DNA of 64,000 bases from Elusimicrobiota bacterium (GCA_027451985.1 DAIDHS010000014.1:1748-65747), one strand, 5' to 3'; shown: positions 2,510 to 54,807, numbered from the stretch's first letter. Notes: a model not told the origin generated them from the sequence alone. Translations and numbers: made by a program.

Positions 2510-2965
2510 TTACTTCAGTCTCTTCTCAAAGATGTAAGACGCCTTGACCTTCTCGTAGCCCTCACGCTCGTAGAACTTGTGAGCGCGCCGGCGGACGACG
2601 CGCGAACTAAAGCGCAGGCGCGTGTAGCCGCGCTTTAACGTCCACGCCTCGGCCGCGGCCAGCAAAAGTTTCCCCACCCCTTTCCCGCGCCAGACCTCGC
2701 CGACCACCAAGCCGCCCAAATACATGCCCGGCTCCGATTCCAGAAGCGGAAACGGAAAGACATGAATCCAGCCCACGACCGCGCCTCCCGAGACACGAGG
2801 CGCCTGCGCGGCGAAAACTGCGTGGCCGGAATGTCTTTCAATGAGCGCGAGGCGCCGGGCCAGCGCCTGGGGCTTCGTAGGATAACCCAGTTCTCCGGCG
2901 AGCTTGGCCGCTGCTTTGGCGTCAGAGAGGCGCAACCGGCGGATTTTGATCGGGTTTCCAGTCAA
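2510..2965 (-). CDS. GNAT family N-acetyltransferase (start uncertain, TTG assumed)
   Basis: The C-terminal 150 aa of ORF 2510..3214 carry the GNAT core (LVVGEVWRGKGVGKLLL, FYEREGY). The N-terminal extension overlaps gene 2977..4284 in another frame, so the start was trimmed to the TTG of LTGNPIKIRR. Confidence 0.5.
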   Translation of the reverse strand: MTGNPIKIRRLRLSDAKAAAKLAGELGYPTKPQALARRLALIERHSGHAVFAAQAPRVSGGAVVGWIHVFPFPLLESEPGMYLGGLVVGEVWRGKGVGKLLLAAAEAWTLKRGYTRLRFSSRVVRRRAHKFYEREGYEKVKASYIFEKRLK

Positions 2966-2976
2966 AGGAAGGCCGG

Positions 2977-4350: not shown

Positions 4351-4385
4351 CATTTAAAAGCAAGCGGCAGAGCCGCTTTCCCTAA

Positions 4386-5381
4386 TTATTTAAAGACAAA
4401 ATAAGCGGCTTCCTCAGCCACGTCGTTGCAACGCTGGCCCTGGGCGTCGGTCATCTTGGAGAGCATGTAGCCGTTCATGCCCCAGGACGTGCCCCAGCTG
4501 TTGCGCAGGATCCAGACGCCTTTACCCGGAGGCAGGTTGCCATTCTTGCCGAACTTAGCCCCCTGGTTATCCCAGCCCACGATGTTGATCATGTGATCGA
4601 TCTGCCCCATCTTGCAGCCGTTGTAGACACCGCTCTGGTAGTTTTCCCAGTCGCCCGTAGCGGCCGCCACGTCGACCGAAACCGGCTTGCCGCTCTTGGT
4701 CATATAGGCCTCGATATCCCGCTCGCTCGGACTGTGCCCCGGCTTGCCCAGCATGTGCCACGCTTTGATGCGCATGACCGGTCCCTGGGGCTTGGCCGGG
4801 CATTGGCCGGCGCCTTCCTGGTAGAAACAGCGGCCCTGCGGGTCTGAGCCGGCCAAGGGCTGGCCCGGGTGGATGAAGTCGTTAGCCGAGTCGAAGTCGC
4901 CGCCGTTGCAGCCGTCGGCCTCGGGAGAGTTGTCCACGAGCCACTCCTGGGAAAGATCCCCGGGGTCCTTGCCGTCGGCGATCGCGTGCCCGTCGCGGTT
5001 GGTCGCGGTCAGGCTGAAGGCCCAGCAGGATCCGCACTGGCCCTGGTCCTGGATGGGAGTGAGCTCGGGGCGGAGATCAAAGGTATTGGGAATGGGAAGA
5101 GACATGCGCTGGGCAGAAACGGAGGCGGATTCCCAGTCGGACTTGGGCAGGGATTTATGGATAAACCCCGTCTCATGGATGGACTCGTACGGAGCGATCG
5201 TGTAGGTCTTCACGACGCTTGAGGAGAACTTCTTGCTCTGCGCCTCCTTCCCGAACGATCTGACGACGGAATTTACGCCCGTTCCCTGATCGAAATTAAC
5301 CTGGGTCTTGTCCGAAGCGAAGCTTTGGGCGCCGGCGATGAAGACGCAAGCGAAAGCCAAGACGAGGCATCTTTTAATCAT
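4386..5381 (-). CDS. secreted papain-family (C1A) cysteine peptidase
   Basis: 331 aa with signal peptide MIKRCLVLAFACVFIAGAQS. Catalytic motifs QGQCGSCWAFS (Cys), DHMINIVGWD (His), NSWGTSWGMNGY (Asn/Trp). Confidence 0.8.
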   Translation of the reverse strand: MIKRCLVLAFACVFIAGAQSFASDKTQVNFDQGTGVNSVVRSFGKEAQSKKFSSSVVKTYTIAPYESIHETGFIHKSLPKSDWESASVSAQRMSLPIPNTFDLRPELTPIQDQGQCGSCWAFSLTATNRDGHAIADGKDPGDLSQEWLVDNSPEADGCNGGDFDSANDFIHPGQPLAGSDPQGRCFYQEGAGQCPAKPQGPVMRIKAWHMLGKPGHSPSERDIEAYMTKSGKPVSVDVAAATGDWENYQSGVYNGCKMGQIDHMINIVGWDNQGAKFGKNGNLPPGKGVWILRNSWGTSWGMNGYMLSKMTDAQGQRCNDVAEEAAYFVFK

Positions 5382-5499
5382 AACCCTCTCCTGTGCGCAA
5401 GTTCGGCCGCAAGGCGACCGCTACTTTACGGCTCGGAAAAGCCTAGCGATTATGGCGGCGGGAATGCAAGGTCCGGGCGCGGCCAGGACCGCGGAACCT

Positions 5500-7152
5500 C
5501 TACTTGACGTCCTTGAGGTCCGCCATGTACTTCTGCGCGATGGTGCCGACCGCCAAGCGATAGTTGATCTCGGCCTGGGCCAGCGCGAGCGCGACGCCGT
5601 TGAGGCTTTGCTGCGCCTGCAGGGCCAAGTCTTGAGACTGCAGCACGCGGAAGGAATCGCTCAGGCCCAGACGCAGCCGTGCTTGCTCCTGCTCGAACTG
5701 CAGCCAGGACAGCCGCGCCGCAGCCTGGGCCACTTGGTAGCGCAAAGACTCGGTCTCAACGCCGCGCACGGCCGAGCGCACATCGAAGCGTACGGTGTTC
5801 TCCGTCCCTTGCAGCGCAAGTTCAGCCTGCTCCCGCGCGGCCTTGGCGGCGCGGTACTTGTCGATGTAGATGCGGTCACCGATGGGAATACTGAAGGCCC
5901 CCCCCACCGACCAAGCGTGGTCGCGGCCGTGCAGGGCGCCGGTAATGGCGTCGTTGAGCGCGCCCGGATCGCCGCTTTGGTTGCTGCCGCCGCTGGCCAA
6001 GGTGCCGGTGAAGTCAAGCTGAGGCAGAAGCGCGTTCCTGGCTTGGGCCAGGAAGGCGTTCTGCTCCGCCAGCACGCTGCGGGCCTGAGCGACGTCGGGG
6101 CGGAGCTTGAGCGCCATGGCCACGGCCTGAGAAAGCGGCGGCAACGTCGGAGCGGCCGCGGGCGCGCCGGTGGCTGTACCGATGGTGTAGCGCTCGTTAT
6201 CGAGCAGTTCCTGCACCTGCGCGCCGTAACAAAGGAAAATCAGATTATCCGCGTCGTCCTCACGGGTGCGCACGGCCTCCAAATAGGAGGTGCGCAGGAT
6301 TTCCACCTGCTCCTCCGAGGTCAGCGCGTCGTGCGCGGAGAGCAGGTTCAACTTGTTGAGCTCCTGGTTCTGGCGCATGATTTTTTCCGCGATGCGCAGG
6401 GACTTGAGCGTCACGGCCTCATTGCTCTCGTCTTGCCGAAGCGTCCAATAGCCGCTCTCGACCGCGGCCACCGTTTGCTGCAAAATGCGTTTGGACGCGG
6501 CCAGAGCCGCGTCGCCGCCCTCCTGCGCGATTTTGGCCGCGGCGAAAGCGGCGCTGCGCCCGAAACCCCGCAAAAGCGGCTGGGTGACGTCCAAGATGAC
6601 GCTTGAGTTGAACAGCGGCTGCGTGGGGGCGATCGAGTTCTCCTGCGTGCGCTGATTCTGCGCCGAAATGGAGAGCAGCGTGCCGATGGTGGTGTTTTTG
6701 TCGATTTTGAAAGTGGTGGTCTGGGAGTTGCTGTAGCTTTCCGCCGGAATCACGCCCGGCGTGTAAACGACGTGCTGGCCGATGTGGCTCTGCGAATAAT
6801 CGGCGCTGAAAACCGGATCGAAGGCGGCGACGTTCGCCTTGGCCCCGTAGCGCGCGTTGGCCAGGGCCGCCTCCGAGGCCAGGAAGCTCAGGTTGCGCGC
6901 GACCGCGACCTGGACCAGCGTCTCAAGCGGCACGCGCACGATAGTTTCATCGACGGTAAAGCGCGTCACCACGTCCGCGGTCGAAACCACCATCGCCGCG
7001 GCCTCCGCGGACAAGGTCGAGACGCTCAAGGCCGCGGATGGCGGCGCAGGAACTTTGGCCGCCGACCTGGCTGCGCGGGCTTGTCCGGGCGCGGCGCAAA
7101 GCAGAAGAGCCGCCGCAGCAATCAGAGCCTGAAGCTTCCCCCTCATGCTCAA
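5500..7152 (-). CDS. TolC-family outer membrane efflux protein
   Basis: 550 aa with signal peptide. Two-repeat coiled-coil/beta architecture, Ala/Gln/Leu-rich helical repeats, and a C-terminus typical of OEP family. ATGA overlap with the upstream ABC gene. Confidence 0.75.
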   Translation of the reverse strand: MSMRGKLQALIAAAALLLCAAPGQARAARSAAKVPAPPSAALSVSTLSAEAAAMVVSTADVVTRFTVDETIVRVPLETLVQVAVARNLSFLASEAALANARYGAKANVAAFDPVFSADYSQSHIGQHVVYTPGVIPAESYSNSQTTTFKIDKNTTIGTLLSISAQNQRTQENSIAPTQPLFNSSVILDVTQPLLRGFGRSAAFAAAKIAQEGGDAALAASKRILQQTVAAVESGYWTLRQDESNEAVTLKSLRIAEKIMRQNQELNKLNLLSAHDALTSEEQVEILRTSYLEAVRTREDDADNLIFLCYGAQVQELLDNERYTIGTATGAPAAAPTLPPLSQAVAMALKLRPDVAQARSVLAEQNAFLAQARNALLPQLDFTGTLASGGSNQSGDPGALNDAITGALHGRDHAWSVGGAFSIPIGDRIYIDKYRAAKAAREQAELALQGTENTVRFDVRSAVRGVETESLRYQVAQAAARLSWLQFEQEQARLRLGLSDSFRVLQSQDLALQAQQSLNGVALALAQAEINYRLAVGTIAQKYMADLKDVK

Positions 7153-9902
7153 GCCATCTGCCTCGATATGAGATCTTTAAAAAGGCCGGGCGTGTCGGCC
7201 AACGCGTCGAAAGTCCCTTCCTGCGCGATGCGGCCCTTATCGAGGACGATGACTCGATCAGCGTTGCGAATCGTGCTCAAGCGGTGCGCGATGACCACGC
7301 GCGTGACGTGCAAGGCATCCAGGCTCTTGGTCACCACTTCCTGCGTGGTGTTGTCCAGCGCGCTGGTGGCCTCGTCGAAATAAATCTTCTTGGGGCGCCG
7401 AGCCAAGGCTCGGGCGATCAAGAGGCGCTGGCGCTGGCCGCCCGACAAGGTCGAGGCGCCTTCGCTGATCAAGGTGAACATGCCCATGGGCATGTCGCGG
7501 ATGTCCTGCGCCACGCCGGCCAGCTCCGCCGCGGCCCAGGCGTCCTCCACACTCAAGGGCAGGCTGCCCACGATGTTGCGGTAGATGTCCCCGGCTAAGA
7601 GCCGGCCGTTTTGCAGCACCACGCCGATTTGCCGGCGGACTGAGCCGGCGTCGACTTTGGAAAGGTCCTGCCCGTCGTAATAAATGGATCCGATTTCGGG
7701 CGTCTCAAATCCCAGCAGAAGCCGCAGGATGGTCGACTTGCCCGATCCGGAGGGCCCCACCAGCGCCACGAACTCTCCGGGCTCGACGCGGAAGGACACG
7801 TCGTCAAGGACCTTGGGGCCGTCCGGGCGGTAGCGGAAGCTGACGTGGTTGACTTCTAGGCGCCCGCTCAAGGCCTTCGAGGCGGGCTTGGCCGAGTCCG
7901 CCTCTGGCAGCGTCTCCATGATGGGCTTGGCGTTTTTCCAGATGGGGATGACGTTCAAAATCGAAAAGGCCGTGCCGCTCAGGGAGATGCCGGCGTTTAA
8001 GAAGACCGTGAAAGCCGCCATGAAGGCGACAAAATCGCCCACCGAGAGCTTCAGGGGCGTCCCGCCGGCGGCCGGATGCATCTTCATATGCACCAACCAA
8101 AAGATTGCCGCGCTGGTGAACACCGGAATCATTGCGTTGAAGACCTGAATGAGATTGTCGTAGGCGTTGGCGGCGAAGGTGAGCTTGGTCGACTCGGCGT
8201 AGGACTTGCTCCACACCGCGAAGCCCCGGCGCTCGGCCGCGGCCACGCGGAGCTTTGAGATGCCGCCCAAAAGCTGGAAGACCAGCCCGGAAATCTTGTT
8301 GTCGAGGGCGGTGAGCTTGTAGCGCAGGCGCAGGGACATCCACAGACAGGCGCTATAGACCGCGACCGCGGCGGCCAGCATGCCGCAGGCGTAGAGCGCC
8401 AGGCCGGAGTCGTAGTAGAAAAGCAGGAAGAGGTTCAAGGCCGCGTGCAGGCTGTTGAGTACCGTCGTCATGACACTGCCGCTTAAGATCTGCTGGATGG
8501 AATTGACCGCGTTGGCGCGCTCGGCCAGTTCTCCCACGCTGTAGTCGCGAAAAAAAGGCACTGGCAGGCGCAAGAGCCTGTCCCAAAGCGCGGCCTGAAC
8601 CTCACCGTTGTACCTGCCGTTAATGCGCATCATGGCCACGCTTTGCGTCAGGCCGAAGAAAGCCGTAGCCAGCGCCGCCGCAACCAGGGCCAGCGTGTAC
8701 TGCATTAGGGCGCCGTACTCGGTGTTGGGGATGACCGTGTCGAAGAGCTTGCCCGTGACCCACGGGGCGGCCAGCCCCAGGACGGCGCCTGCTCCGGCCA
8801 TGAGTGCCAGCATCAGGAGATCGCCGCGCACTTCCTTGGCCACGAAACCCGCCACGTCCCGAAAGCGCACGACGGAATCCGGGAAGGGGCGGTAGAAGAC
8901 ATAGCCGAACGGCGAAAGGGAGCGCGCGGCCGCGGCGTCCACCGGGCGCCGCGAACCGTCCTCAGGATTAAAAATCTCGTAGGAGCCGGGCTTGACCGGC
9001 AGCAGGGCCACGGGCGGCCCGCAGAAATCACCATCGGGAGACGGCGGAGCGCCTAGCGCGGGAGCCGCCTCATCCGCGGGTTTTTCCGGAGCGGGCCCGC
9101 CCAAAGAGGCCAGAATAGGCCCGCAGTCGCTCTTCCACCAAGCCCCGCGCAAGGCGATGCGGCGCGAGCGCACGCGTGAGGCTTGACAGACGGCATCCAA
9201 GTAAAATCGGGGCGCGGGGTAGTCCGCGCGCCCGCCGGGATGAGAAAATTCGACGCCCATGGCTTCGCCCACCGCCAGCATGGCGCCGAAGAAGTGGTCG
9301 TCTTCGGGCGCGGCCAAGGCCGCGCCGGCCTTGGGCTCGATGATGCGGGCGAGGCGATTTAAGGCTGCGCGGTAAGCGCGCTCATCCGAAGCCTTGCGCC
9401 GCTCCAGACGTTTGGCGTCCTCAGCTTCGCCTTTTTCGGCCAAGTCCGCCAGGCGTTCCATCAATCCGTCTTGCAGGCTTAAAACCTGATCCAGAGCGGC
9501 CTCCTCCTCCGCGACCTTCGCGTCAGCCGATCCTGTCGGAGAGAAAGCGTCCGCCATGATTTGAAGGTAGAGTCTAAAATCCGCCGCGGCGCCCGCCGTC
9601 CCGGCGAACTCGCGCGCGTCTTGGCGGCGCACGGAGGCGCCCTGCCGCCCGACCGCGAGCAGGCTAAAGCCGCGCCGCGGCGGGGCACCCGCAAAAATAC
9701 GCCCGGCCGGAGCGGTGAAAACGTGCCGCCGCGGCCCCACAGGAACGCCGTTTTGGGCGCGCACGGCAAAGACGTCGACCTGGCCCGATTCGACCTTGTA
9801 AATCCAGCGCGCGTCGTCCAAGATGAGCGGGTGGTTGCCGGACAAAGACATTGCGGCCTGGGCTTCGTAGCTCATCTTATTGGCCCCCGGCCAAGCGAGC
9901 AT
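7149..9902 (-). CDS. NHLM-type bacteriocin export ABC transporter (permease+ATPase) with N-terminal cNMP-binding-like domain
   Basis: 917 aa. N-terminal beta-roll domain (ILDDARWIYKVESGQVDVFAV), six-helix permease domain, Walker A GPSGSGKST, signature LSGGQRQR, Walker B IYFDEATSALD. Confidence 0.8.
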   Translation of the reverse strand: MLAWPGANKMSYEAQAAMSLSGNHPLILDDARWIYKVESGQVDVFAVRAQNGVPVGPRRHVFTAPAGRIFAGAPPRRGFSLLAVGRQGASVRRQDAREFAGTAGAAADFRLYLQIMADAFSPTGSADAKVAEEEAALDQVLSLQDGLMERLADLAEKGEAEDAKRLERRKASDERAYRAALNRLARIIEPKAGAALAAPEDDHFFGAMLAVGEAMGVEFSHPGGRADYPAPRFYLDAVCQASRVRSRRIALRGAWWKSDCGPILASLGGPAPEKPADEAAPALGAPPSPDGDFCGPPVALLPVKPGSYEIFNPEDGSRRPVDAAAARSLSPFGYVFYRPFPDSVVRFRDVAGFVAKEVRGDLLMLALMAGAGAVLGLAAPWVTGKLFDTVIPNTEYGALMQYTLALVAAALATAFFGLTQSVAMMRINGRYNGEVQAALWDRLLRLPVPFFRDYSVGELAERANAVNSIQQILSGSVMTTVLNSLHAALNLFLLFYYDSGLALYACGMLAAAVAVYSACLWMSLRLRYKLTALDNKISGLVFQLLGGISKLRVAAAERRGFAVWSKSYAESTKLTFAANAYDNLIQVFNAMIPVFTSAAIFWLVHMKMHPAAGGTPLKLSVGDFVAFMAAFTVFLNAGISLSGTAFSILNVIPIWKNAKPIMETLPEADSAKPASKALSGRLEVNHVSFRYRPDGPKVLDDVSFRVEPGEFVALVGPSGSGKSTILRLLLGFETPEIGSIYYDGQDLSKVDAGSVRRQIGVVLQNGRLLAGDIYRNIVGSLPLSVEDAWAAAELAGVAQDIRDMPMGMFTLISEGASTLSGGQRQRLLIARALARRPKKIYFDEATSALDNTTQEVVTKSLDALHVTRVVIAHRLSTIRNADRVIVLDKGRIAQEGTFDALADTPGLFKDLISRQMA

Positions 9903-12057: not shown

Positions 12058-12064
12058 GGGGCGA

Positions 12065-13123
12065 TTAGAGCCCCAGCAGGGACTTCATCGCCGGGATGAC
12101 CAAGGTGATGGGGCGGCGCTTTTTGACGATGACGCGCACGTCGCACATCATGCCCGCCTTGATTTTCTGCTGCGGGCCGTCCGATGAGGACCAGCGGTAG
12201 CCGCTAAAATTATTGGGGTCCGCCTCCAGGGAGATACGCAGGATGTAGGGCGCGCCGCCGGAGGTGAGTTCCTGATCGAGGATATTGTTGCGGGTCAACT
12301 CGAAAATCATCTGCTCACGCGCGGGGAACTCGGAGACATAATAGACTTGGCCCTTCAAGTAGCCGTACTCTTCCTTCTTGATCGTGCGCGGCGAGACCTC
12401 CGCGGCCATGCCGGGCTTGGCCTGGTTGCCCACGCTCGGGATAAAGGCGATGGCGTTCAAAGACTGCTTCTCGCTGAAATAGGTCATGAGGAAAGCGCCT
12501 TTTTGGATGAGCGTGCCAGGCGAGGTCATGACTTCCACGATGCGCCCGCTCTTGGGCGCGATCACGTCCGTGGCTTCCTTCAACTCCATGCCGTTCAAGG
12601 CCAGCTGATTCTGGAGGGACTTGAGCTGGCTTTTGGCCTGGGCAAGGTTCTGCTTGGCGTTCTCCAGCACGTCTGGCGCGATGAGCCCCCCCTGCAGGGC
12701 CACCCGCATGGAGTCGACCTGGCGCTGCAGGCTACGCATGTGTTCCTGCGTGGCCGCGATCTTCTGGCTGATTTCCGCGTTCGAGCGGGCGCCGCGCTGC
12801 GCCATGTTGCTCTGATCCAGCGTCGCGACGACTTGTCCCTTTGTTACTGCGTCGCCTTCGCTGACGAAAATCTGCTTGACGATTCCGGTCCCGGGCGAGT
12901 AGATATTGTCCACGCCGCGGGGCGGCATGATGATGGCGGGACCGGAAATCGTCGTGGGAATGCTGCCGAAGACGGACCAGATGAGCGCTAAAGCGATGAG
13001 TCCGCAGAGCGTCCACAGGGCATACCAGCCCTTGGGTGTGGTCACCTGCATCAGGTAGTCTAGTTGCTCGGGAGAGGAGAGGCGTTCCAGAGAGGTTTTT
13101 CTAAAGATTTCCTGCTCGGCCAT
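12065..13123 (-). CDS. HlyD-family membrane fusion / NHLM bacteriocin secretion protein
   Basis: 352 aa. An N-terminal TM helix (WYALWTLCGLIALALIWSVF), a long coiled-coil (LQRQVDSMRVALQ...LKSLQNQLALN) and a C-terminal beta-barrel domain. Confidence 0.8.
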   Translation of the reverse strand: MAEQEIFRKTSLERLSSPEQLDYLMQVTTPKGWYALWTLCGLIALALIWSVFGSIPTTISGPAIIMPPRGVDNIYSPGTGIVKQIFVSEGDAVTKGQVVATLDQSNMAQRGARSNAEISQKIAATQEHMRSLQRQVDSMRVALQGGLIAPDVLENAKQNLAQAKSQLKSLQNQLALNGMELKEATDVIAPKSGRIVEVMTSPGTLIQKGAFLMTYFSEKQSLNAIAFIPSVGNQAKPGMAAEVSPRTIKKEEYGYLKGQVYYVSEFPAREQMIFELTRNNILDQELTSGGAPYILRISLEADPNNFSGYRWSSSDGPQQKIKAGMMCDVRVIVKKRRPITLVIPAMKSLLGL

Positions 13124-13155
13124 GAATGGAAAATTTTAACACAAAAGCGGGCGGC

Positions 13156-16100
13156 TCAAGCGAAGATTTCGACCTCGGGGAGTCCCTTTTGCAAAAAACG
13201 CGCGGCCGCGTAGCCGACGCCCGATTGACCCTGAAAAAATCCAGGGGTGGGCAGGCCCGCATCGAAGCCCAGGCGCAGGGCGCCTCGCTCGGTGCGGGAC
13301 GCCACGAGCGCGATGTCTCGCCGCGCCCACCGCGCCAAATTATCGTCTTTAAGAGCCTCTGCGGCGCGCTTTAAAAAAAGAGCGACGCCCACCTTGCCGC
13401 AGCACAAGTGATCGACGGGAGGCTCATCCGCGTGGCGCCAAGCCGCCGTGGCGGCTTGGCGCACGCTCAGCGAAAAATCGACACCCAGAAGCCGGCCCGT
13501 TTCCAAAAGCCCAAGACCCACGCCCGCCGCTCCGCCGCACCAGCTGGAGACAAAGCGCGGTTTGTCTCCCTGCCCGAAATCGCGCCAGTCCGGCCAGCCG
13601 CCCGCCTCGGCGTCGTAGCGCGCGGCGCAAAGCTCGGCCAAGTCGCGGGCCGCGGCGGCCCACGGGCCACCGCGCTTGGCCATGCGCGCGCAGACGTAGG
13701 CCGCGCCCGCCGCGCCGTGCGCTAAGCCCAATTCCGGACGCGCGTTTCGGCGCGACGCGGCCGCGCTGAAGAGCTCCCGGCTCGCCGCCAGAAATTCTTT
13801 CGAGAGCTCCTCGCGGCGACGCTCGATTTCGCCCGCGAGCGCGGCGGGAAGCCCCTGCGGCAGGACCTCCAGCGCCAAAAGAGCGCCCGGGATTCCCCCC
13901 AGCAGGTCCGCTCGGCGCGCGTCCTCCAGAGACAGGTATTTGGGCGAAAGCGCCGCCGCCAGATGGGCCGCGTCCAGGACTAGAGATTCATCTTTCAGGA
14001 TGCGGCCGATAGCCGATAAGCCGTAGGGCAAGGAGGCCGCGCCCGTGCCCACGCCCAGGCCCATGATGCGCACCATCCGCTCCATGCCGTATCGCTGCGC
14101 GTCGCGGGCGGCGAGCTTGGCCGTGGCCAGGGCCGTGCGGCGGGCGCGCTCGTGCCCCCCGACGGCGTGGGCCGCGGCCAGGAAAAGGGAAATGCCCATC
14201 GCCCCGTCGAAAAGCCGGCCGCCCACGGGACCGTACTGCCAGTTGCGCGAACGTTCGTCGTAGCACAGGGACAGCCACCAAGCCTCGTCGTTTTCCGCCA
14301 TCAGGGCGCCGTCTAAGATGCCGTCGGCCAGGCGTAAAATCACGCTCTTAAGCGTCTCCGGCGAGGCGTCGGCCTCTTCGGCGCCCTCCGGAGCGGACTT
14401 CCCCTGCGCCGCTTTGGGCATAAAAAAGCTCGCGCGCAGGAACTGCCTTTGCCGGGATAAATCAGGCTCGCCCAGCGCGGACAAGCGCCCGCGGACCAGG
14501 TCCAGCGGCGCTTCGTTCATCGTCAGAATCCGCCGCCCGCCGCAAGACGCGTACGCCCGGCCCGGCGCCGTTTTAAAAACCGGAACGTCCCGGTAAGACA
14601 ACGTCGCGATTTCCTCAACGGCGCACAAGCCGAGGCCCCGCCGCTCTTCCTCGTCTTCCACGCCGGAGAGCGCCCGCCACAAGGGCTCGAACACCAAGCC
14701 ATGGGCCGCGCCGTCCTTGAGCGCCGCGGGCTCCAGAGACTTTTGCAGCAGGTGGGCGTAGACCTTGGTGTTGCGCAGGATAAAGCGGGTCGGGATATCC
14801 CGGAGAGGCTCGAGCGCGGCGGAAGCGGCTTCGCGGATCTCGGGATGCAGAGCCTGGCCATAGGCCTCGGTAAAGCCCGTTTCGATGTCGTCTAGATAAT
14901 CGGCCGCGGCGACGGGCCGGCCGTTTAAAAGCGGTTTGTTCGCGCTGGGCGGGGCGGCCGTCCGGACCTTGGCCACGCGCATGCGGTCGCGGTTGGGAAA
15001 TTGCCACGCCAGGACTTCTCCCGATTCGCCCGCGCTTCCCCCCGCCAATCCGCTCGACTCCAAAACCCGGTCGCCGCCCAAAAACTCGTAGCGGGGCAGA
15101 AGCGCCGTGCGCACGACCGATTCAAAGAAGAAGCGGTGCAGCGCCAAGTTGGACGCGCCAAAGGCGTCCGCTCCCATACGCGGCCTCGGGCAGCACACGG
15201 TCTCCAAATCGATGGGATAAGGCCCCGCGGCGGTCGCGACGATGTTCTCGTGATGCAGGTCCGAGGCGCCCAGCAGGTACATGTGGAAGAGCAGCTCTCC
15301 CGCCGCCTTGAAATATCTCCGGACTTCGACCTCGGTTTTAAAATCGGCGCGGCGGGCAAATTCGCAGTAGCCGTAGCCGTCGCGGCCCAGTACGCGCAGG
15401 CGACCTAAGCTTGAGGCAAAACCCGCGGCGCCGATGCCGTCCAAGTAGGCGCCAAACCACGCCTCGGCCGCCAATGATTTGGGCTTATAAAGGAAGCGTG
15501 CGCCGCCTTCCGATTCCAGCACGGCCACGGTCTTTCCGCCCTCGTGCGGATCCGAGACGCCGAATTGGACGTGCCGCGCGCGCGCGGGCGCGCCTCCCAC
15601 GACGAAGAGCCGGACGACTTCCGGCCAATCCTCGGTCAAACGGGAAACGAACAGGGTCATGTTCCTGCGCCAATTTTCCAGCAAAACGGCCATGACGCGC
15701 AGAAGGACCGGGTATTCCCCGAAGAAAGCCCGGAAGCCGTCTTCCTGAAATTTAAGGATGAAGGCGCGGAAAGCGGCGTCTGACTCCGCGTCGAAACCGG
15801 AGAGGCTTTCGCCCTCCAGGTTTTTAAAAACGGCGAACTCAGCCGCGAGGCAATAGGCCGAAACGCCGCACAAGTTGTTGAGTAGATCGTGCCGTAAATC
15901 GTCCCAGGCCTCCGCCGCCAGCGGAGCCTCGGGAACAGCCGCCGCGCAAGAGCTCTGAAGACGCGCAAGCTCGTGATGCGTCAGGGCCGACCAGACGGGG
16001 CCAAACGCCACGTCCGCGTCGGGCAAAACGGCTCCGCTTTGCGAATTTCTCAGCACGCCGGAGAAAAACTCGACGATGTCCACAGCTGCGGGGACCCAGC

Positions 16101-16299
16101 GTTCGTCATCAGGAGGCGATCCGCCGAAGGCTTTGCGCTGTTCCAAAAGTCCGGGAGTGAGCGGATCGATGGCCACGCGCCATGCCTCCACGTCCAGGCC
16201 CCGCGCGCCGTCGGCCGAAAGCCGCTCGGACAAAAGGCGCGCTTTGGGTAGAAGCGCCTGAACGAAGGCTTCCGGCGGGGCGAAGGACGCGGCGCTCAC
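13156..16299 (-). CDS. class II lanthipeptide synthetase LanM (ProcM-like, CCG zinc motif)
   Basis: The DUF4135 dehydratase domain carries the conserved DLHHENIV. The C-terminal LanC-like cyclase has GLAHGAAG, SWCGGAAG (WCxG) and HLCCGKVG (CCG instead of CHG). The start is set at the GTG overlapping the upstream TGA stop (GTGA at 16296-16299); the first 207 codons of ORF 13156..16917 overlap the JmjC gene in another frame and hold no Met. Confidence 0.85.
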   Translation of the reverse strand: MSAASFAPPEAFVQALLPKARLLSERLSADGARGLDVEAWRVAIDPLTPGLLEQRKAFGGSPPDDERWVPAAVDIVEFFSGVLRNSQSGAVLPDADVAFGPVWSALTHHELARLQSSCAAAVPEAPLAAEAWDDLRHDLLNNLCGVSAYCLAAEFAVFKNLEGESLSGFDAESDAAFRAFILKFQEDGFRAFFGEYPVLLRVMAVLLENWRRNMTLFVSRLTEDWPEVVRLFVVGGAPARARHVQFGVSDPHEGGKTVAVLESEGGARFLYKPKSLAAEAWFGAYLDGIGAAGFASSLGRLRVLGRDGYGYCEFARRADFKTEVEVRRYFKAAGELLFHMYLLGASDLHHENIVATAAGPYPIDLETVCCPRPRMGADAFGASNLALHRFFFESVVRTALLPRYEFLGGDRVLESSGLAGGSAGESGEVLAWQFPNRDRMRVAKVRTAAPPSANKPLLNGRPVAAADYLDDIETGFTEAYGQALHPEIREAASAALEPLRDIPTRFILRNTKVYAHLLQKSLEPAALKDGAAHGLVFEPLWRALSGVEDEEERRGLGLCAVEEIATLSYRDVPVFKTAPGRAYASCGGRRILTMNEAPLDLVRGRLSALGEPDLSRQRQFLRASFFMPKAAQGKSAPEGAEEADASPETLKSVILRLADGILDGALMAENDEAWWLSLCYDERSRNWQYGPVGGRLFDGAMGISLFLAAAHAVGGHERARRTALATAKLAARDAQRYGMERMVRIMGLGVGTGAASLPYGLSAIGRILKDESLVLDAAHLAAALSPKYLSLEDARRADLLGGIPGALLALEVLPQGLPAALAGEIERRREELSKEFLAASRELFSAAASRRNARPELGLAHGAAGAAYVCARMAKRGGPWAAAARDLAELCAARYDAEAGGWPDWRDFGQGDKPRFVSSWCGGAAGVGLGLLETGRLLGVDFSLSVRQAATAAWRHADEPPVDHLCCGKVGVALFLKRAAEALKDDNLARWARRDIALVASRTERGALRLGFDAGLPTPGFFQGQSGVGYAAARFLQKGLPEVEIFA

Positions 16300-17027
16300 G
16301 CCTCCTCCCGGCGCAGACGCCACGCCTGCGGGTCGTCCGCGATCGCATCCAGAAATGCGGAGAGGTTCGTGTGGTTGACGAAGTTGAAGCTCAAAGTCAC
16401 GGAAGGCTCGAGGCTGCGCGCGGAGTGCACCTGCCCGGCGGGCACGAGCAGCACGTCGCCGGGCTCCAGATCCGCTCTCTTGACCGCGGACCGCGCCTTT
16501 TCTCCGGCCGGGCCGTGCAGGCTTACGCACTTGCGGCCGATGATTTGCGCGAGCCAGGCGTGCGTGGAAAACAAATCCGTGTGCGGCAAAGTCTCGGTCC
16601 CTGCGGGGCCGATGAAAAGCCAGCCGAACTTCTTCAAATACCACTCCTTGTCCGCGGGGGAGCGGAAATCGAGCAGCGTGCGGCAGAACTCCGGAAAAGC
16701 GAAGTCCTCCAGCAGCTCGGGGTGCTTCGCGAAAGGAGAATATTGCAGGGTATACCAGCGCGGCTCGCTCTCGGGTCCGGCGCCGCCTAAAATCCAATCG
16801 ATGAAGCCGGCCAGAAGCACTTTCTTGCCGCGCTTGGTTCCGCCGATGTTGTCGCCCACGACCAACTCGTCTTGCCCCAGCGCCTCGCGCAAAAAATCCC
16901 AGGTCCAGCGCCCGCACGCCCGCCAGTGCTTGGCGTAGCCTTTAAAGAGCGCCGGCGCGCCCGGAGAAGCGAGCAGCGCGCGCTCGGCCTCCTCTGCGGA
17001 AATGCCCTCTTTGAAAACGCGGATCAT
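16296..17027 (-). CDS. JmjC/cupin-type Fe(II)/2-oxoglutarate-dependent oxygenase (putative peptide hydroxylase)
   Basis: 243 aa from the internal Met MIRVFKEG. An HxD...H triad is visible (LPHTDLFSTHAW ... AGQVHSA) in a beta-roll context. ATGA overlap with the upstream gene; its stop overlaps the LanM GTG. Confidence 0.6.
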   Translation of the reverse strand: MIRVFKEGISAEEAERALLASPGAPALFKGYAKHWRACGRWTWDFLREALGQDELVVGDNIGGTKRGKKVLLAGFIDWILGGAGPESEPRWYTLQYSPFAKHPELLEDFAFPEFCRTLLDFRSPADKEWYLKKFGWLFIGPAGTETLPHTDLFSTHAWLAQIIGRKCVSLHGPAGEKARSAVKRADLEPGDVLLVPAGQVHSARSLEPSVTLSFNFVNHTNLSAFLDAIADDPQAWRLRREEA

Positions 17028-17926
17028 GACGGCGCGGCGGCGGAAAGGGCGGAGCGGCGGCGGATCTCCGCCCCGAAGCGATCCGTCAAGACGCCCGAGA
17101 GCCTCTCCAGCAGCCGGTCGCACAGATCTCGCGGAGTGTAGCCCGAAATGCGCGAGAGGCTGATGCCGATGAACCGGCAGTCCATATCCGAGCTTTTAAG
17201 CCACGCGGCGAAGCGATCCAGGCGCGCGAAGGCTTCCTCGTCCGTGGCCGTGCGGCCCTCGCCGCGCCCCTCCGAACGACCGAAGACCAGCAGGTGCCGT
17301 CCGTCGGGCGAGATCGTGGGGCTGACCGGAGCGCCGGGGGAAATGCGCAGAAGATGATACGGGTTGCTCTTAAAGCTTTCAAACTCGCCCGCGGTGACCT
17401 CAAGAGCGACCGGAGCGCGGTCCGGAGTCAGGTTGCAGGAGAAATAGTCCAGGCAGACGTCGAGCGCGACCGGGCCTTGCGGGCGGATGTCGGAAAGAGC
17501 CTTGACCCGAGCGAAGCGCGCCTGGGCGGCGTCCGGCTTGCCTTCCAATTCGGGCGGCAGCGGCCCTTTGGCCCAGACCATGGCGCGGCGCGCCGGATCA
17601 GTCGTGAAAACGCAGACCGGGCCGTCGTAGGGGATCGTGGCCTCGTGCTCGCGGTGCCACCACACCTCGCCGAAGAGGCCGTGAAGCATGGCCGGCCAGA
17701 TGAAGTTGGCGATGTTGAGCTCCTTCAAGACGAAGGCGCGTGTCTCCGCGAGGCCCGCTTCCGGCTTGAGCATCGGGCCCTGCAGCGTGGGCAAGTCCAT
17801 GTCCGAGTGCTCGTCGATGTGGACCAAGGAACTGCCCCGCGCGGGAAGGACGCCCCTGACGGCGGCCTCCTTCCAGAAGTAGAACGCCTCGTGGTGCTCC
17901 TCGAAAACGACGCAGGAGACGGGCAT
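17024..17926 (-). CDS. UPF0489-like (C5orf22-like) domain protein, function unknown
   Basis: 300 aa from MPVSCVVFEEHHEAFYFW. The motif block VFEEHHE...LVHIDEHSDMD resembles UPF0489 as I recall it, with low certainty. TGATG overlap with the upstream GNAT. Confidence 0.4.
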   Translation of the reverse strand: MPVSCVVFEEHHEAFYFWKEAAVRGVLPARGSSLVHIDEHSDMDLPTLQGPMLKPEAGLAETRAFVLKELNIANFIWPAMLHGLFGEVWWHREHEATIPYDGPVCVFTTDPARRAMVWAKGPLPPELEGKPDAAQARFARVKALSDIRPQGPVALDVCLDYFSCNLTPDRAPVALEVTAGEFESFKSNPYHLLRISPGAPVSPTISPDGRHLLVFGRSEGRGEGRTATDEEAFARLDRFAAWLKSSDMDCRFIGISLSRISGYTPRDLCDRLLERLSGVLTDRFGAEIRRRSALSAAAPS

Positions 17927-18858
17927 CAGCTCCGCGCGGGGGCGAGCAGGACTTCGAGCCCGCGCAAAGTCCAGGTCCTGTCCAGGCAGGGCACCAAGTG
18001 CTTGTTCAAGGAGCGCAGCCACTCGGGATATTCCAGCGGCACGTCGAACTCGGCGCAGCTGGGCGAACCTTTTTTCAAAAACATCTGGTAATGCGCGTTC
18101 ATGGCCGCGCGCAGGAGAAGCACGGCCGCGGCGCGGTGGCGCGAGGCGAAGTCCGGCTCGACCCAGAACTTGGTGTAGTAGAGCGTGTCCGGCTTCTCCG
18201 CGAAGCGGTGGGTCGCGAACCAGCCCTTGGCCTCGTCGCCCGCAAACAGCATCTGGCTCGTCTCCCAGTCGAGCTCACTTTGCCTAAAGCGCACGCCCAG
18301 GTGGGCCGGACCCCCGGCGCGCGAACCCCGCTCGATGGGGTCAAGCCCCTCGACGCGGGCTTTGGCCCAGGAAATCACGCGCCAATCGGCGGTCGAGGAT
18401 TCCCCCGCCCCCTTGGCCCAGCGCGGGATGTTCGCGATGCGGCTCTGTCCGAAGAAGATGCGCGTAAAAGGCGTCCCGTAGCCCGCCTTGATGATGGTCT
18501 TTTCCGCGGCTTCCAAGCCCGTGATGCGGCTGCCGTAATTCAAGGAAAGCCGCTCAAGATCAGGGGCGCGGGAAAGCTCTTCCCTCAAGCGGCGCAGCAA
18601 CGCGGCGCCGAGGCCTTGCCGGCGATATTCCGGCGCGACGTAGACGGAAAGCAGTTCGGCCCTATGCTCCGCGGCAATGAGACCGGCCAGAGCCAAGCCC
18701 TGCGGCTCGCCGCCTAAAGTCCGCGCGGCCGCGGCCAGCCAGGGAAATTCCTTCTTCGCGGCGCCTTCGGCGTAGGACGGGTAAGTGAGACCGGCCCAAG
18801 GGGCGAAGTCGGCTTCGGCGTTAAGGATGGAAATTTCGGAATCTAAAGCGGCGTTCAC
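17926..18858 (-). CDS. GNAT family N-acetyltransferase with C-terminal extension
   Basis: 310 aa. GNAT motif A is LSVYVAPEYRRQGLGAALLRRL. A C-terminal ~170 aa domain is of unknown function. Confidence 0.55.
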   Translation of the reverse strand: MNAALDSEISILNAEADFAPWAGLTYPSYAEGAAKKEFPWLAAAARTLGGEPQGLALAGLIAAEHRAELLSVYVAPEYRRQGLGAALLRRLREELSRAPDLERLSLNYGSRITGLEAAEKTIIKAGYGTPFTRIFFGQSRIANIPRWAKGAGESSTADWRVISWAKARVEGLDPIERGSRAGGPAHLGVRFRQSELDWETSQMLFAGDEAKGWFATHRFAEKPDTLYYTKFWVEPDFASRHRAAAVLLLRAAMNAHYQMFLKKGSPSCAEFDVPLEYPEWLRSLNKHLVPCLDRTWTLRGLEVLLAPARS

Positions 18859-18950
18859 GGGAGAAATCTCGGATTGGGGCTTTGCGCTCCGGAGCGCGGC
18901 CGAACTGCTCCGCGCCCCGGAGCGATGCCGTTTTAATTTTTCGGCCGAAA

Positions 18951-19268
18951 CTACATGCTCATCATGACGCAGGCCGAGGAGCCGCCGCAGCTCGCGCCGC
19001 AGCGCCCGCCGCCCGCGACTTTCTCAAGCTCGCTGTCCGAGAGCTCGCCGCCCGCCTTAACCAGATCGGGCACCACGACCACCAAGTCCGCGCCGTTGCG
19101 CGCCACGGCCTTGATGTTGAAGCCTTGCGGAAGCTCCTTGCCGGAGACTTCTTTGACCGCCGCGCTGGGGTTTTTGAGCGCCAGCTCGCGGAACTTCGCG
19201 TCCGTCGAAGCCTTGCGCGAGAACGCTTCCAAGGCTTTTTTTTGCTCGTCTTGGGTCCAGGGTTTCAT
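18951..19268 (-). CDS. lanthipeptide precursor A1 with NHLP (nitrile hydratase leader peptide)-type leader
   Basis: 105 aa. The leader is MKPWTQDEQKKALEAF...DAKFRELALKNP...LVVVVPDLVKAGGELSDSELEKVAGG. The predicted core is G-RCGASCGGSSACVMMSM, with 3 Cys and 4 Ser. Confidence 0.8.
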   Translation of the reverse strand: MKPWTQDEQKKALEAFSRKASTDAKFRELALKNPSAAVKEVSGKELPQGFNIKAVARNGADLVVVVPDLVKAGGELSDSELEKVAGGGRCGASCGGSSACVMMSM

Positions 19269-19331
19269 CGTTTTCTCCTTAAGAATAATTTAAACGGCCC
19301 GCCTTTCCTTTATATCGATTTGCAAATGCGC

Positions 19332-19694
19332 TTAAACGCAGGCTCCACCCACTCCCGGCACGTACGTAGGCCCCGGAGGCACCGTGGACGAAACCAGGCA
19401 GACCTGGCTGATACCGCAGCTTCCCGCGCAGCGTCCTCCCGCGACCTTCTCGAGTTCGCTGTCCGAGAGCTCGCCGCCCGCCTTGACCAGGTCGGGAACC
19501 ACAAGCACCATGTCCGCGCCGTCCCTCGCCACCGCCGCGACCTTAAAGCCCGCCGGCAGATCCTTGCCGGAGACTTCCTTGACCGCCGCGGCCGGATTCT
19601 TGAGCGCCAACTCGCGGAATTTCGCGTCCGTCGAGGCCTTGCGTGCGAACGCCTCCAAAGCCTTTTTCTTTTCGTCCTGCGTCCAAGGTTTCAT
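19332..19694 (-). CDS. lanthipeptide precursor A2 with NHLP-type leader
   Basis: 120 aa. The leader is almost identical to A1 and ends ...SDSELEKVAGG. The predicted core is RCAGSCGISQVCLVSSTVPPGPTYVPGVGGACV, with 4 Cys and 6 Ser/Thr. The ATG overlaps the upstream gene's stop (ATGA). Confidence 0.8.
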   Translation of the reverse strand: MKPWTQDEKKKALEAFARKASTDAKFRELALKNPAAAVKEVSGKDLPAGFKVAAVARDGADMVLVVPDLVKAGGELSDSELEKVAGGRCAGSCGISQVCLVSSTVPPGPTYVPGVGGACV

Positions 19695-20449
19695 GCGATT
19701 TTCTCCTTTCCCTCGAAAGCCGCGCGCGTCTCGCCGACGGCGGCAAGTTCCACGCGCAGATTAAAATTATCCGGAAGATGCCGCCCCATTATCCGGGCGG
19801 CGGCGCCGCGCGGATCGGACAAGAAGCGCCCCTTAAAGTCCGGCCGGGCCGCGGCGCGTTTCAAGACGGTTCGGCGTAGGCATTGGATTTCGAATTCGTT
19901 CGGAGGCGGCGCGGGCGGAAACACCTCGCCCTCGCCCAGCACGGTGATGCGCGCCGCCAAGGCCTGCCGCCAGCACTCGCGCGCGGCGGCGAGAACGTCC
20001 GCGAAATCCCGGACCGGCGCCAGCGGCGCGGCTTTCGCACCCGAATCGGCCACCAGGGCGCCGTAGCAGGCGAGCGCTTCCCGGAGCTTTTGAAGTTCAG
20101 CGCCACTAACGTCCGCGCCCAACGCACGCGCATCGAACGCCACGCATCGGGTGCGCGGCGCCGGAATGAAAACGGGGACGCAGGTCGCGCCGACGAACTC
20201 GGTCTCCATCAAATCAAAAAGAAATTCCCCGGCCCGGACGTCGAAAAGTTTGTGCCGCCGGATGAAGACGCCGCTTTCGGGATGGCGCCGCGCCAGAAAC
20301 AGGCTGAGGCGGCCCTCCAAGACAAGCCACGCGCGGCCCGGGGAGCCACACTGAACGTAGGGAACCCCGCCGGGGAGTTCTTGTCCGACGGCCTCGATGC
20401 GTTGCTCCAAGGTCCCGGGCTCCACTGTCATCTTAGAGGATGCTATCAT
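19691..20449 (-). CDS. cyclic-nucleotide-binding-like (beta-roll) domain protein, standalone
   Basis: 252 aa from MIASSKMTVEPG (SD-like aaaaagagaaat upstream). The N-terminal domain LVLEGRLSLFLARRHPESGVFIRRHKLFDVRAGEFLFDL resembles a cNMP-binding fold. The stop overlaps the A2 start. Confidence 0.45.
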   Translation of the reverse strand: MIASSKMTVEPGTLEQRIEAVGQELPGGVPYVQCGSPGRAWLVLEGRLSLFLARRHPESGVFIRRHKLFDVRAGEFLFDLMETEFVGATCVPVFIPAPRTRCVAFDARALGADVSGAELQKLREALACYGALVADSGAKAAPLAPVRDFADVLAAARECWRQALAARITVLGEGEVFPPAPPPNEFEIQCLRRTVLKRAAARPDFKGRFLSDPRGAAARIMGRHLPDNFNLRVELAAVGETRAAFEGKEKIA

Positions 20450-20468
20450 ATTTCTCTTTTTCGTCGTT

Positions 20469-21497
20469 TTAGCGGCCAAAAAAAGCACGAGCCGCAATCG
20501 CATTACAGATCAGATACGCGACGGGATAGAGCGCGCGGGAAGCGGAGCGCACGCGCGCCGCAGTCCGGGACGAGCGCGCTTGGGCCGCGCGATGAACCAC
20601 GACGATTTCCACTATGGACAACGCGGAAAAGACGAAGCAAATGAGGAAGAACGCGTCGATGTAGGTCAGATACGGTAGGTGCGGCAGGCTGCCCGAGATG
20701 ACGAACAAGAAGGCCACCATCGTCAGCGTGGCGCTCAAGGCCACGGAGAACTGAGCCGCCACGTCAGTCTCATTGATCCACAAGGCGCAGTAGGACACGA
20801 TGACCATGATAAAGAGCGGCAGGAACACCTTCCATATATAGTAGCCGTAGCGGCGCTTGATGAGCATGTTAAAGTCGATTTCTGGGATGCTGCCGCCCTT
20901 GCCGCCCAGCACCGACTCCGCGGGCACGGCCTTCATGCCGAGCATCTTCCACTGCGCCAGAAGCGCCCAAGGCTGGCTATTGATGCCGGTCTGCCCCGGG
21001 TCGGGGATGGGATTGACCACGTCCCGCTCATCGAGGAACGGCTGGATGACCACGGGCAGGACCTGCTCGTCGAAGGGAAAACGGTGGAAGCTCATCTGCA
21101 TGGTGAGGTCGTCCTCGAAGTCCTCCCAGAAAACCACCGTGCCGTCGGGCTTGCGCCGGACGTTGGTGCCCAGCTTGAAGAGCCCGTTGACGGCGTTGGC
21201 CATGATGACGTTGGGCGTCCAGATTTTAGCCGGATCGCAGAGCCGATCTTTGTCCTTGGGGCCGCGCGGAACGTACTTGAGTCGAGGATCCTTCCACTGC
21301 TCATAGAGGTATCCCCGGATGCGGAAGGTCTGCGCGACCTCGTCGACGCCCACCAAGTCGGTCACGTAGACGCCTACTTTGACAGGCACGCGCCCGCCGC
21401 TGGACGGCGGAGGAGGAGGAATTTGACGGGCCGAAGCCCGAAGCCCCGTGGACAGAAGAGGAATCAGGAGCGTAACGGCAATTGCGGTGCGCTTCAT
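20469..21497 (-). CDS. prokaryotic pentameric (Cys-loop family) ligand-gated ion channel homologue
   Basis: 342 aa. Signal peptide, ~200 aa beta-rich extracellular domain, then pre-M1/M1 RRYGYYIWKVFLPLFIMVIVSYCALWI (GLIC/ELIC-like R-x-Y..LP..F....S..A.W), M2 SVALSATLTMVAFLFVISGSLP, M3 and a short M4. Confidence 0.7.
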   Translation of the reverse strand: MKRTAIAVTLLIPLLSTGLRASARQIPPPPPSSGGRVPVKVGVYVTDLVGVDEVAQTFRIRGYLYEQWKDPRLKYVPRGPKDKDRLCDPAKIWTPNVIMANAVNGLFKLGTNVRRKPDGTVVFWEDFEDDLTMQMSFHRFPFDEQVLPVVIQPFLDERDVVNPIPDPGQTGINSQPWALLAQWKMLGMKAVPAESVLGGKGGSIPEIDFNMLIKRRYGYYIWKVFLPLFIMVIVSYCALWINETDVAAQFSVALSATLTMVAFLFVISGSLPHLPYLTYIDAFFLICFVFSALSIVEIVVVHRAAQARSSRTAARVRSASRALYPVAYLICNAIAARAFFGR

Positions 21498-21547
21498 TTT
21501 TGAAGATTATATCCTAAAAGTTATGATCCTAATATAAGGAAAAAACG

Positions 21548-53479: not shown

Positions 53480-53530
53480 GGAAATATTTCGCCCAAATAA
53501 CGTTTCAGTTAAACCGTATAAGGAAAGCCG

Positions 53531-53807: not shown

Positions 53808-53846
53808 GCCAGAGGCCTTCCTGGCCTTATTAAACAGCCGTTCAAA

Positions 53847-54554: not shown

Positions 54555-54577
54555 GAATGCCTCGCAGTTTAAGAGTC

Positions 54578-54784: not shown

Positions 54785-54807
54785 TATTGTTGATGGAACC
54801 AAATGGC

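Follow-up and report, generated by a model that had tools for sequence, protein, structure and literature searches.

What kind of modified peptide is encoded by a locus that combines two precursor genes, a lanthionine synthetase, three further tailoring enzymes, a peptide exporter and a ligand-gated ion channel? Such a locus lies in a stretch of 64,000 nucleotides from an Elusimicrobiota bacterium (GCA_027451985.1 DAIDHS010000014.1:1748-65747), which we call the window and whose positions are counted from its first letter. Thirteen consecutive genes on the minus strand, running from 21497 down to 4386 (~17 kb), were delimited by listing and translating open reading frames (ORFs). They encode, in this order, a pentameric ligand-gated ion channel (pLGIC), a 246-aa protein, two precursor peptides (A2 and A1), a GNAT acyltransferase (N), a predicted peptide arginase (R), a JmjC/cupin hydroxylase (I), a LanM class II lanthionine synthetase (M), an HlyD-type membrane fusion protein, two ABC exporters (ABC1 and ABC2), a TolC-family outer-membrane duct and a secreted C1 cysteine protease. 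We consider it quite probable that the region is a selidamide-type lipolanthipeptide cluster similar to that of phaeornamide, with the arrangement A-N-R-I-M.

Gene order and precursor peptides

Pfam and NCBIfam searches found the expected domains in all 13 genes except that for the 246-aa protein, which has no Pfam match. The coordinates, gene order and domain labels given by an earlier, sequence-only reading of the window are thereby confirmed, with the "cNMP-like" (cyclic nucleotide-binding-like) label of the 246-aa protein holding at the level of the fold only. The same searches support its description of the locus as a full class II lanthipeptide cluster that has a three-gene NHLM exporter and two precursors with NHLP leaders: the LanM and transporter models match, and the precursor model TIGR03793 matches 2-3 bits below its cut-off.

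The closest described counterpart is the pha cluster (phaANRIM) of Pseudophaeobacter arcticus DSM 23566, the source of phaeornamide, in which genes for export machinery that includes a peptidase come after those for an NHLP precursor, a GNAT, a PF12640 arginase, a PF08007 hydroxylase and a LanM (Hubrich et al., PNAS 2022; PMC8784127). There, PhaR converts Arg2 of the core to ornithine, PhaI hydroxylates the ornithine at C-gamma, PhaN places an (S)-3-hydroxydecanoyl group on N-delta and PhaM forms a Cys4-Thr7 ring, while the acylation site of the related kamptornamide is Orn1 (PMC8784127). In the window the order precursors-GNAT-arginase-cupin-LanM is that of phaANRIM. The tailoring trio, which the sequence-only reading had placed outside the described systems, thus has a published precedent, GNAT, arginase, hydroxylase and LanM standing in this order in the pha cluster (PMC8784127).

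Both precursors fit this scheme. A2 (19332..19694, minus strand, 120 aa; core RCAGSCGISQVCLVSSTVPPGPTYVPGVGGACV) and A1 (18951..19268, minus strand, 105 aa; core GRCGASCGGSSACVMMSM) share 81% identity over their NHLP leaders, which end in EKVAGG. Each core holds a single arginine, at position 1 in A2 (RCAGSCGISQVC...) and at position 2 in A1 (GRCGASCGG...), directly followed in both by C-x-x-S-C. The core arginine is retained in most homologues, and the A2 core is unchanged in a relative (R1, see below); the public record of the nearest relative labels the precursors only as "hypothetical protein". Two R-C-x-x-S-C core types recur across phyla, a short one of the form (x0-5)-R-C-G-x-S/T-C-... 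and a long one of the form R-C-x-x-S-C-A-A-S-C-A-V-T-S-T-V-S...P-G-V-G..C-[VIL]. Homologues of the long A2 type were found in Vicinamibacteria, Opitutales and gammaproteobacteria and those of the short A1 type across phyla, so that short and long precursors with an N-terminal R-C-x-x-S-C occur in at least four phyla (loci L009, L010, L025, L029 and L033); the cores of Nisaea differ. The long peptides of two gammaproteobacterial loci contain no arginine, and only their short peptide could therefore be ornithinylated and acylated. As a sign of a two-component system, the recurring short and long pair is only suggestive; two-component lantibiotics have a LanM for each peptide, and a single LanM is present in the cluster.

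In several of the short peptides GG is separated from RC by 4-5 additional residues, a hint of a second trimming step. The C1 protease was considered as the enzyme of such a step, a proposal that we found unsupported as no other cluster has one.

Distribution of related clusters

Related loci were collected by comparing an arginase alignment with one genome per species and then the proteins of the window with the returned loci (tblastn and blastp). Two sets of loci are close relatives, R1 (L001, L003-L007) and R2 (L002, L087-L090, L092); the nearest named relative is the metagenome-assembled genome (MAG) "Elusimicrobiota bacterium SMAG_U13921" (GCA_035534315.1). R1 and R2 keep the whole block from the pLGIC through the 246-aa gene, A2, A1, N, R, I, M, HlyD and ABC1 to ABC2, a recurrence far above chance, with 78-94% identity to the window for most genes and 56-59% for the 246-aa protein.

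Beyond these lineages, the arrangement A,A,N,R,I,M is found in two Vicinamibacteria MAGs (L009 and L010, where the match to LanM is partial, ~290 residues), in Nisaea (L018), in an Alteromonadaceae MAG (L029), in an Opitutales MAG (L033) and in Pseudohaliea rubra DSM 19751 (L025). Chromatocurvus (L024), of the same Halieaceae group as the latter, is represented by a short contig with N, R and I only. The gene set and both core types are thus conserved across phyla. A version with A-N-R-M occurs in the metagenomic loci L093-L095, of which L093 (8431-17916) encodes TolC, HlyD, ABC1, ABC2, a 75-aa ORF discussed below, three R-C-x-x-S/T-C precursors, a GNAT, an arginase and a LanM. The window thus represents a widespread arginase/GNAT lanthipeptide subfamily that is uncharacterised as far as the searchable literature shows. 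A metagenome scan with LanM, based on exact 8-mers unique to the window, returned only an unrelated LanM with 24% identity, and a tblastn search of plasmids with the arginase found nothing.

Tailoring enzymes and predicted product

The arginase gene (17024..17926, minus strand, 300 aa) encodes a PF12640 (UPF0489) protein (57 bits). What had been labelled merely "UPF0489-like" can now be named more precisely: the sole PDB sequence match is the OspR entry 8BRP, "peptide arginase" (E 1.6e-30), with which the H-x-D-E-H-S-D motif is shared, and OspR is 28% identical to the first sequence of a four-sequence arginase alignment. By analogy with PhaR, this enzyme would turn the core arginine into ornithine.

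The next gene (16296..17027, minus strand, 243 aa) encodes an Fe(II)/2-oxoglutarate-dependent JmjC/cupin enzyme (Cupin_8 and JmjC_2) that passes the thresholds of both PF13621 (53.2 bits) and PF08007 (25.2 bits, cut-off 22), the latter being the family to which PhaI was assigned (PMC8784127). Its nearest structures are JMJD5 and JMJD6, which hydroxylate Arg/Lys side chains, and hydroxylation of ornithine is predicted. A hydroxamate-siderophore-like product, with N-hydroxy-N-acetyl-ornithine, was also considered and dropped, since carbon is the atom that JmjC enzymes hydroxylate and the product of PhaI is 4-hydroxyornithine.

The GNAT (17926..18858, minus strand, 310 aa; PF00583) is predicted, by analogy with KspN and PhaN, to acylate N-delta of the (hydroxy)ornithine (PMC8784127). 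It belongs to a family of ~300 aa that aligns end to end across the ANR(I)M loci and stands beside an arginase and a LanM in each. A second, divergent GNAT paralogue of ~300 aa was noticed in three of these loci (L009 1243-2136, L010 1204-2103, L033 3048-3965), which suggests two different acylations or two acceptor peptides there.

Transferred from PhaR, PhaI, PhaN and PhaM, as every chemical step, the acyl group and the ring pattern are, the pathway would proceed as follows. Two NHLP-leader precursors, A2 and A1, would be made; the arginase would hydrolyse the single core arginine (A2 position 1, A1 position 2) to ornithine, the JmjC/cupin enzyme would hydroxylate it, and the GNAT would acylate its delta-amine, probably with a medium-chain fatty acid from primary metabolism. 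The ProcM-like LanM would dehydrate Ser/Thr and close up to three (A1) or four (A2) thioether rings, the first of them probably the C-x-x-S ring next to the ornithine. Finally, the C39 peptidase-containing ABC exporter would cut after GG and, together with ABC2, HlyD and TolC, export the product across both membranes. With 3-OH-C10 as the acyl group, the calculated mass of the A1 core would change over these modifications from 1693.62 to 1783.69 Da, and that of the A2 core from 3120.49 to 3192.55 Da.

Several points weigh against this interpretation. The cluster is known from genes alone, in a MAG. Both precursors fall 2-3 bits short of the TIGR03793 cut-off of 50.9 (A2 47.3 bits, E 1.4e-12; A1 48.2 bits, E 7e-13), and their cores carry 3-4 cysteines, whereas phaeornamide and kamptornamide have a single ring. 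The arginase scores 170 bits (E 6e-50) against NF052474 (FlmR/OhkR peptide arginase), whose cut-off is 350, and belongs to the wider PF12640 arginase family, not to this narrow model. The GNAT comparison was confined to the homologues in ANR(I)M loci, and AlphaFold2 predicts the C-terminal half of the GNAT poorly (predicted local distance difference test, pLDDT, 54), so that the acyl pocket cannot be read from the model.

Extent of the cluster and its head genes

How many of the 13 genes serve this pathway is a separate question. Start codons were refined from relatives and from the DNA (arginase 17926, cupin 17027, LanM GTG 16299, TolC ATG 7146), and the NCBI call of 20431 was kept for the 246-aa protein. 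With these starts the junctions are operon-like across the cluster: an ATGA overlap joins the 246-aa gene to A2, the GNAT and arginase genes have a single base in common, the arginase/cupin and cupin/LanM junctions are ATGA and GTGA overlaps, respectively, and HlyD/ABC1, ABC1/ABC2 and ABC2/TolC overlap or are separated by at most 7 nt. The proposal of tight couplings within one long operon therefore describes most junctions well, but four are wider (37 nt between the pLGIC and 246-aa genes, 63 nt between A2 and A1, 92 nt between A1 and the GNAT, and 118 nt between TolC and the C1 protease).

The gap after A1 contains a GC-rich stem-loop (18878..18929, minus strand) with a 15-bp stem (z -2.2); 3 of 200 shuffled sequences fold as well, and the structure is kept in R1 and R2 with compensatory base changes. 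Hairpins are common after lanthipeptide structural genes, and this one probably acts as a transcript stabiliser or attenuator. No terminator better than chance was found inside the block. A terminator-like hairpin followed by a T-run (4362..4378, minus strand), recognised by consensus match only, lies just past the stop codon of the C1 protease.

At the head of the block lies the pLGIC gene (20469..21497, minus strand), whose GLIC-like product has a signal peptide, an extracellular ligand-binding domain (PF02931) and a four-helix membrane domain (PF02932). GLIC structures match it over its full length (E 3e-44), and the NCBIfam model LGIC_1 scores 137, below its cut-off of 500. It is 82-83% identical and syntenic in R1 and R2; tblastn against plasmids gave no match. 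Its tie to the cluster would consist of this synteny in three related lineages and of a promoter-like element, TTTTAGGATATAAT (21506..21519, minus strand), which lies 9-10 nt upstream of the start codon and is identical in the window, R1 and R2. We infer that this element acts as a promoter; should it be a -10 box, the transcript would have almost no leader. Further upstream the three sequences are unrelated, with a Kdp operon and a lipid A acyltransferase in R1 and R2 and GreA-like and ThiF genes in the window. The identity of TTTTAGGATATAAT in three lineages despite these different flanks indicates that the conserved block begins with the pLGIC and this element. One possibility is that the lipolanthipeptide, once secreted, gates or blocks the channel and so serves autosensing or self-protection.

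The second gene of the block (19691..20431, minus strand) encodes the 246-aa protein, which joins an N-terminal CRP/cNMP-binding-like beta-barrel to half an NHLP leader, C-terminal and coreless. It is rare: only ~4 true homologue clusters came out of a profile search of 1.84 billion representatives. Its N-terminal half matches the N-terminus of the TIGR03797 exporter P0012 (E 6e-15), which itself scores 769 bits against TIGR03797, and its last ~70 residues match NHLP leaders, the leader-like part ending before the ELSDxELExVAGG recognition/cleavage region. The AlphaFold2 model is confident (pLDDT 83; predicted template-modelling score, pTM, 0.81) and predicts a CRP/FNR-type beta-barrel for the N-domain, and hhalign relates this domain to the family of ABC2 N-terminal domains (probability 94%, E 1e-7), which would make the two paralogues. 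This also backs, at fold level, the "cNMP-ABC" label that ABC2 had been given. Only profile-profile comparison was significant here: BLASTP comparisons of the 246-aa protein with ABC2 and with A2 fell short of significance, and a small hidden Markov model (HMM) missed the ABC2 of the window. The "cNMP-like" label of the 246-aa protein stands for the fold, but not for the sequence family or the cassette. PF00027 gave no match even at E 10; in place of a canonical GE...R[ST]A phosphate-binding cassette, the protein has G-E and an Arg ~22 residues apart, with Arg-Ser/Thr not conserved in four homologues. Nucleotide binding is therefore unsupported.

A clue to the role of this protein comes from L093-L095, where its two modules are encoded apart: ABC2 carries the CRP-like domain as a fusion, and the half-leader forms a 75-aa ORF that overlaps the ABC2 stop codon just upstream of the three precursors. 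The ABC2 N-terminus of L093 is the closest relative of the 246-aa N-domain. This pattern of fusion and fission suggests that the exporter N-domain and the N-terminal half of the leader interact and, read as a "Rosetta stone", that TIGR03797 exporters may use their N-terminal domain as a receptor for leader peptides; no relevant literature was found on TIGR03797 together with cNMP. The 246-aa protein itself may imitate the leader and thereby gate export or maturation. That both head genes are functional parts of the system, as leader mimic and peptide-gated channel, strikes us as unlikely.

At the other end, the C1 protease gene (4386..5381, minus strand; PF00112, E 7.5e-41) encodes a secreted papain-family protein with a signal peptide. 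As the end of the cluster it had been correctly described in location and domain and as secreted, but its membership is doubtful: in R2 it is separated from TolC by a glucose/sorbosone dehydrogenase (GSDH) gene, its identity to the R2 copy is 70% (78-91% for core genes), and the clusters of other phyla lack it.

The strongest alternative is accordingly a narrower cluster, in which the pLGIC, the C1 protease or both owe their position simply to the recent shared ancestry of three close lineages and would have no part in making, exporting or sensing the peptides or in immunity; we give this slightly less than an even chance. The pLGIC and the 246-aa gene accompany the cluster in the three related Elusimicrobiota lineages only; tblastn and blastp with the window proteins found the pLGIC, the 246-aa protein and the C1 protease in none of the homologous clusters of five other phyla or classes, and our searches found no literature connecting pLGICs with lanthipeptides or other clusters for peptides that are made by ribosomes and modified after translation (RiPPs). 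The protease also fits this picture, being less conserved than the core genes, separated from TolC in R2, and followed there by the same beta-lactamase-like gene as in the window. Against it, the pLGIC, the promoter-like element and the 246-aa gene have stayed attached to the block despite different upstream flanks, the gap between the pLGIC and 246-aa genes is only 34-37 nt, and the first terminator found lies after the protease. The earlier remark that the ion channel and the standalone cNMP-like protein lie outside described systems holds; they remain the only undescribed genes of the cluster.

Acyl donor and lanthipeptide type

A second alternative concerns the product: instead of adding a fatty acid, the GNAT may transfer an acetyl group to the (hydroxy)ornithine or to the new N-terminus, or draw on another acyl donor, which would yield a non-lipidated ornithine lanthipeptide. 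Most GNATs use acetyl-CoA, the matches of this one in PDB and NCBIfam sequences are only weak and to RimI-type acetyltransferases, and the acyl pocket could not be modelled. Yet its ~300-aa family, about twice the length of a plain acetyltransferase, is restricted to ANR(I)M loci, and all three characterised RiPP GNATs in such settings transfer C10-C16 fatty acyl groups (PMC8784127). A non-lipidated product is thus distinctly improbable, and acylation with a fatty acid is the step that we retain for the selidamide-type pathway.

LanM (13156..16299, minus strand, 1047 aa), with a GTG start that overlaps the cupin stop, matches TIGR03897 (556 bits), PF13575 and PF05147. Its LanC-like domain carries a C-C-G zinc-ligand motif (SWCGG and HLCCGKVG), which, from general knowledge of ProcM, we take to be a ProcM-like zinc site. 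To this extent the designation of the cluster as "prochlorosin-type" is justified, but it does not extend to the leaders: prochlorosin leaders are of the Nif11 type (PMC10783134), and the Nif11 model TIGR03798 reaches only 17 bits (E 0.003-0.005; cut-off 32.3) on those of the window, far less than the NHLP model. That the locus is a prochlorosin-type cluster which recruited an undescribed tailoring trio, and so makes a new kind of modified lanthipeptide, is very unlikely; the CCG motif, an NHLM exporter common to prochlorosin and Nif11 systems and the uncharacterised R-C-x-x-S-C cores speak for it, while the NHLP leaders, the identification of UPF0489 as the peptide arginase family and the published pha cluster, with trio, LanM and NHLP precursor in the same order (PMC8784127), speak against it.

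Export

The exporter comprises three adjacent genes that each pass the curated cut-off of their NHLM model: the HlyD-type membrane fusion protein of the NHLP system (12065..13123, minus strand; TIGR03794, 280 bits, cut-off 156), ABC1 (9877..12057, minus strand; TIGR03796, 1100 bits, cut-off 853) and ABC2 (7149..9902, minus strand; TIGR03797, 883 bits, cut-off 709). ABC1 has an N-terminal C39 peptidase domain (PF03412, E 1e-36) with its catalytic Cys within QMEAVECG, which by analogy would cut the leader after GG. ABC2 has an N-terminal CRP/cNMP-like domain, and its true start, judging from relatives, is probably the ATG at 9875.

The TolC-family gene (5500..7152, minus strand; PF02321, OEP) is a credible fourth part of this exporter, because OEP genes also sit inside the L009, L033 and L093 clusters. 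Its ATG at 7146 lies 2 nt past the ABC2 stop and opens a clear signal peptide. The same coupling is found in R2 (start 1-2 nt past ABC2, signal peptide), and in R1 an ORF with a signal peptide begins at the same spot, of which 24 codons are known; no close orthologue of TolC from R1 was found in the protein database. The public gene calls for TolC (P0025 and P0026; 497 and 504 aa) begin downstream of the signal peptide. The longer ORF, starting 1-2 nt past ABC2, has a typical signal peptide in the window as well as in R2, and the public calls are therefore probably wrong about the start.

Significance

The core logic of this pathway was already described with the selidamides in 2022; what is new is the phylum, the two-peptide cores and the two head genes. 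Ribosomal lipopeptide (selidamide) pathways would thus extend to Elusimicrobiota, a phylum known largely from MAGs, and the search brings to light a widespread subfamily, so far uncharacterised, in which a pair of short and long R-C-x-x-S-C cores is conserved. Acylating enzymes of the selidamide type are of interest for engineering gene-encoded lipopeptides. If the accessory genes are functional, the role of the N-terminal domain of NHLP "ABC2" exporters and the natural stimuli of bacterial pentameric ligand-gated channels become testable, and if the proposed role of the channel is true, a bacterial pLGIC would gain a native peptide ligand and a physiological role.

Other features of the window

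The flanks of the cluster are housekeeping-like, with a divergent GreA-like gene, a ThiS-ThiF-rhodanese fusion, and beta-lactamase-like, GNAT and dienelactone hydrolase genes. TypA and GlpK of the window fall into clusters, at 90% identity or more, with proteins from Elusimicrobiota MAGs. A diderm host is consistent with the TolC, a phosphate porin and the lipid A acyltransferase, the last found in the relatives. The GNAT gene of the flank, of ordinary length (2510-3214), lies three genes downstream of the cluster, adjoins the beta-lactamase-like and dienelactone hydrolase genes and has no tie to the peptide pathway.

The region 22448-25268 contains a 520-aa ORF in which a ThiS-like sulfur carrier (...SIAGG) is fused to ThiF/MoeB and rhodanese domains, adjoining a pyridoxal phosphate-dependent, cysteine-synthase-like gene. 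The pair is reminiscent of a thiocarboxylate pathway of the CysO/CysM/MoeZ type in which carrier and activating enzyme form one protein. An ORF of 1108 aa (48954-52280), with a fungalysin/thermolysin propeptide motif and a C-terminal FlgD-Ig-like domain, probably encodes a large secreted protease. Finally, an island of low GC content (53530-56018; ~0.49 versus ~0.64 elsewhere) adjoins tRNA-Arg(tcg) (53530-53602). It holds, on the minus strand, an orphan ORF of 235 aa (53847-54554) and, on the plus strand, a C-5 cytosine DNA methylase (54774-56018), and has the look of a restriction-modification or mobile island that was acquired.

Comparison with known systems

Among the systems compared, GLIC, the proton-gated channel of Gloeobacter, concerns the head of the locus: the pLGIC is homologous to it over its full length, in both domains, but is here the first gene of a RiPP cluster. 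Prochlorosins share with the window a class II synthetase whose zinc site has three Cys (CCG), a long leader that is protein-like and ends in GG, and the NHLM-type C39 ABC exporter family. They differ in their Nif11-type leaders, in having many dispersed precursors for a single ProcM, and in lacking arginase, hydroxylase or GNAT tailoring. The ksp cluster (kamptornamide, Kamptonema sp. PCC 6506) and the osp cluster (landornamide) come closer, with an NHLP precursor, a LanM and a peptide arginase, to which ksp adds a GNAT. However, ksp has neither hydroxylase nor transporter genes, osp lacks a GNAT but encodes a radical SAM epimerase, and the core peptides of both are unrelated to those of the window. 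The metagenomic loci L093, L094 and L095 share short and long R-C-x-x-S/T-C precursors, GNAT, arginase, LanM, TolC, HlyD, ABC1 and ABC2, and differ by the absence of the hydroxylase and the pLGIC and by the split of the 246-aa modules.

The likeness to the pha cluster extends from the NHLP precursor with its GG site, through the same enzymes in the same order, to the export machinery with peptidase that follows, and includes an acceptor arginine at core position 1-2 beside a Cys-x-x-Ser/Thr ring motif. Whereas the pha cluster has one precursor and an alphaproteobacterial host, the Elusimicrobiota cluster has a short and a long precursor with 3-4 cysteines in their cores, probably forming several rings, and adds a coupled TolC, a pLGIC and a CRP-like/half-leader protein.

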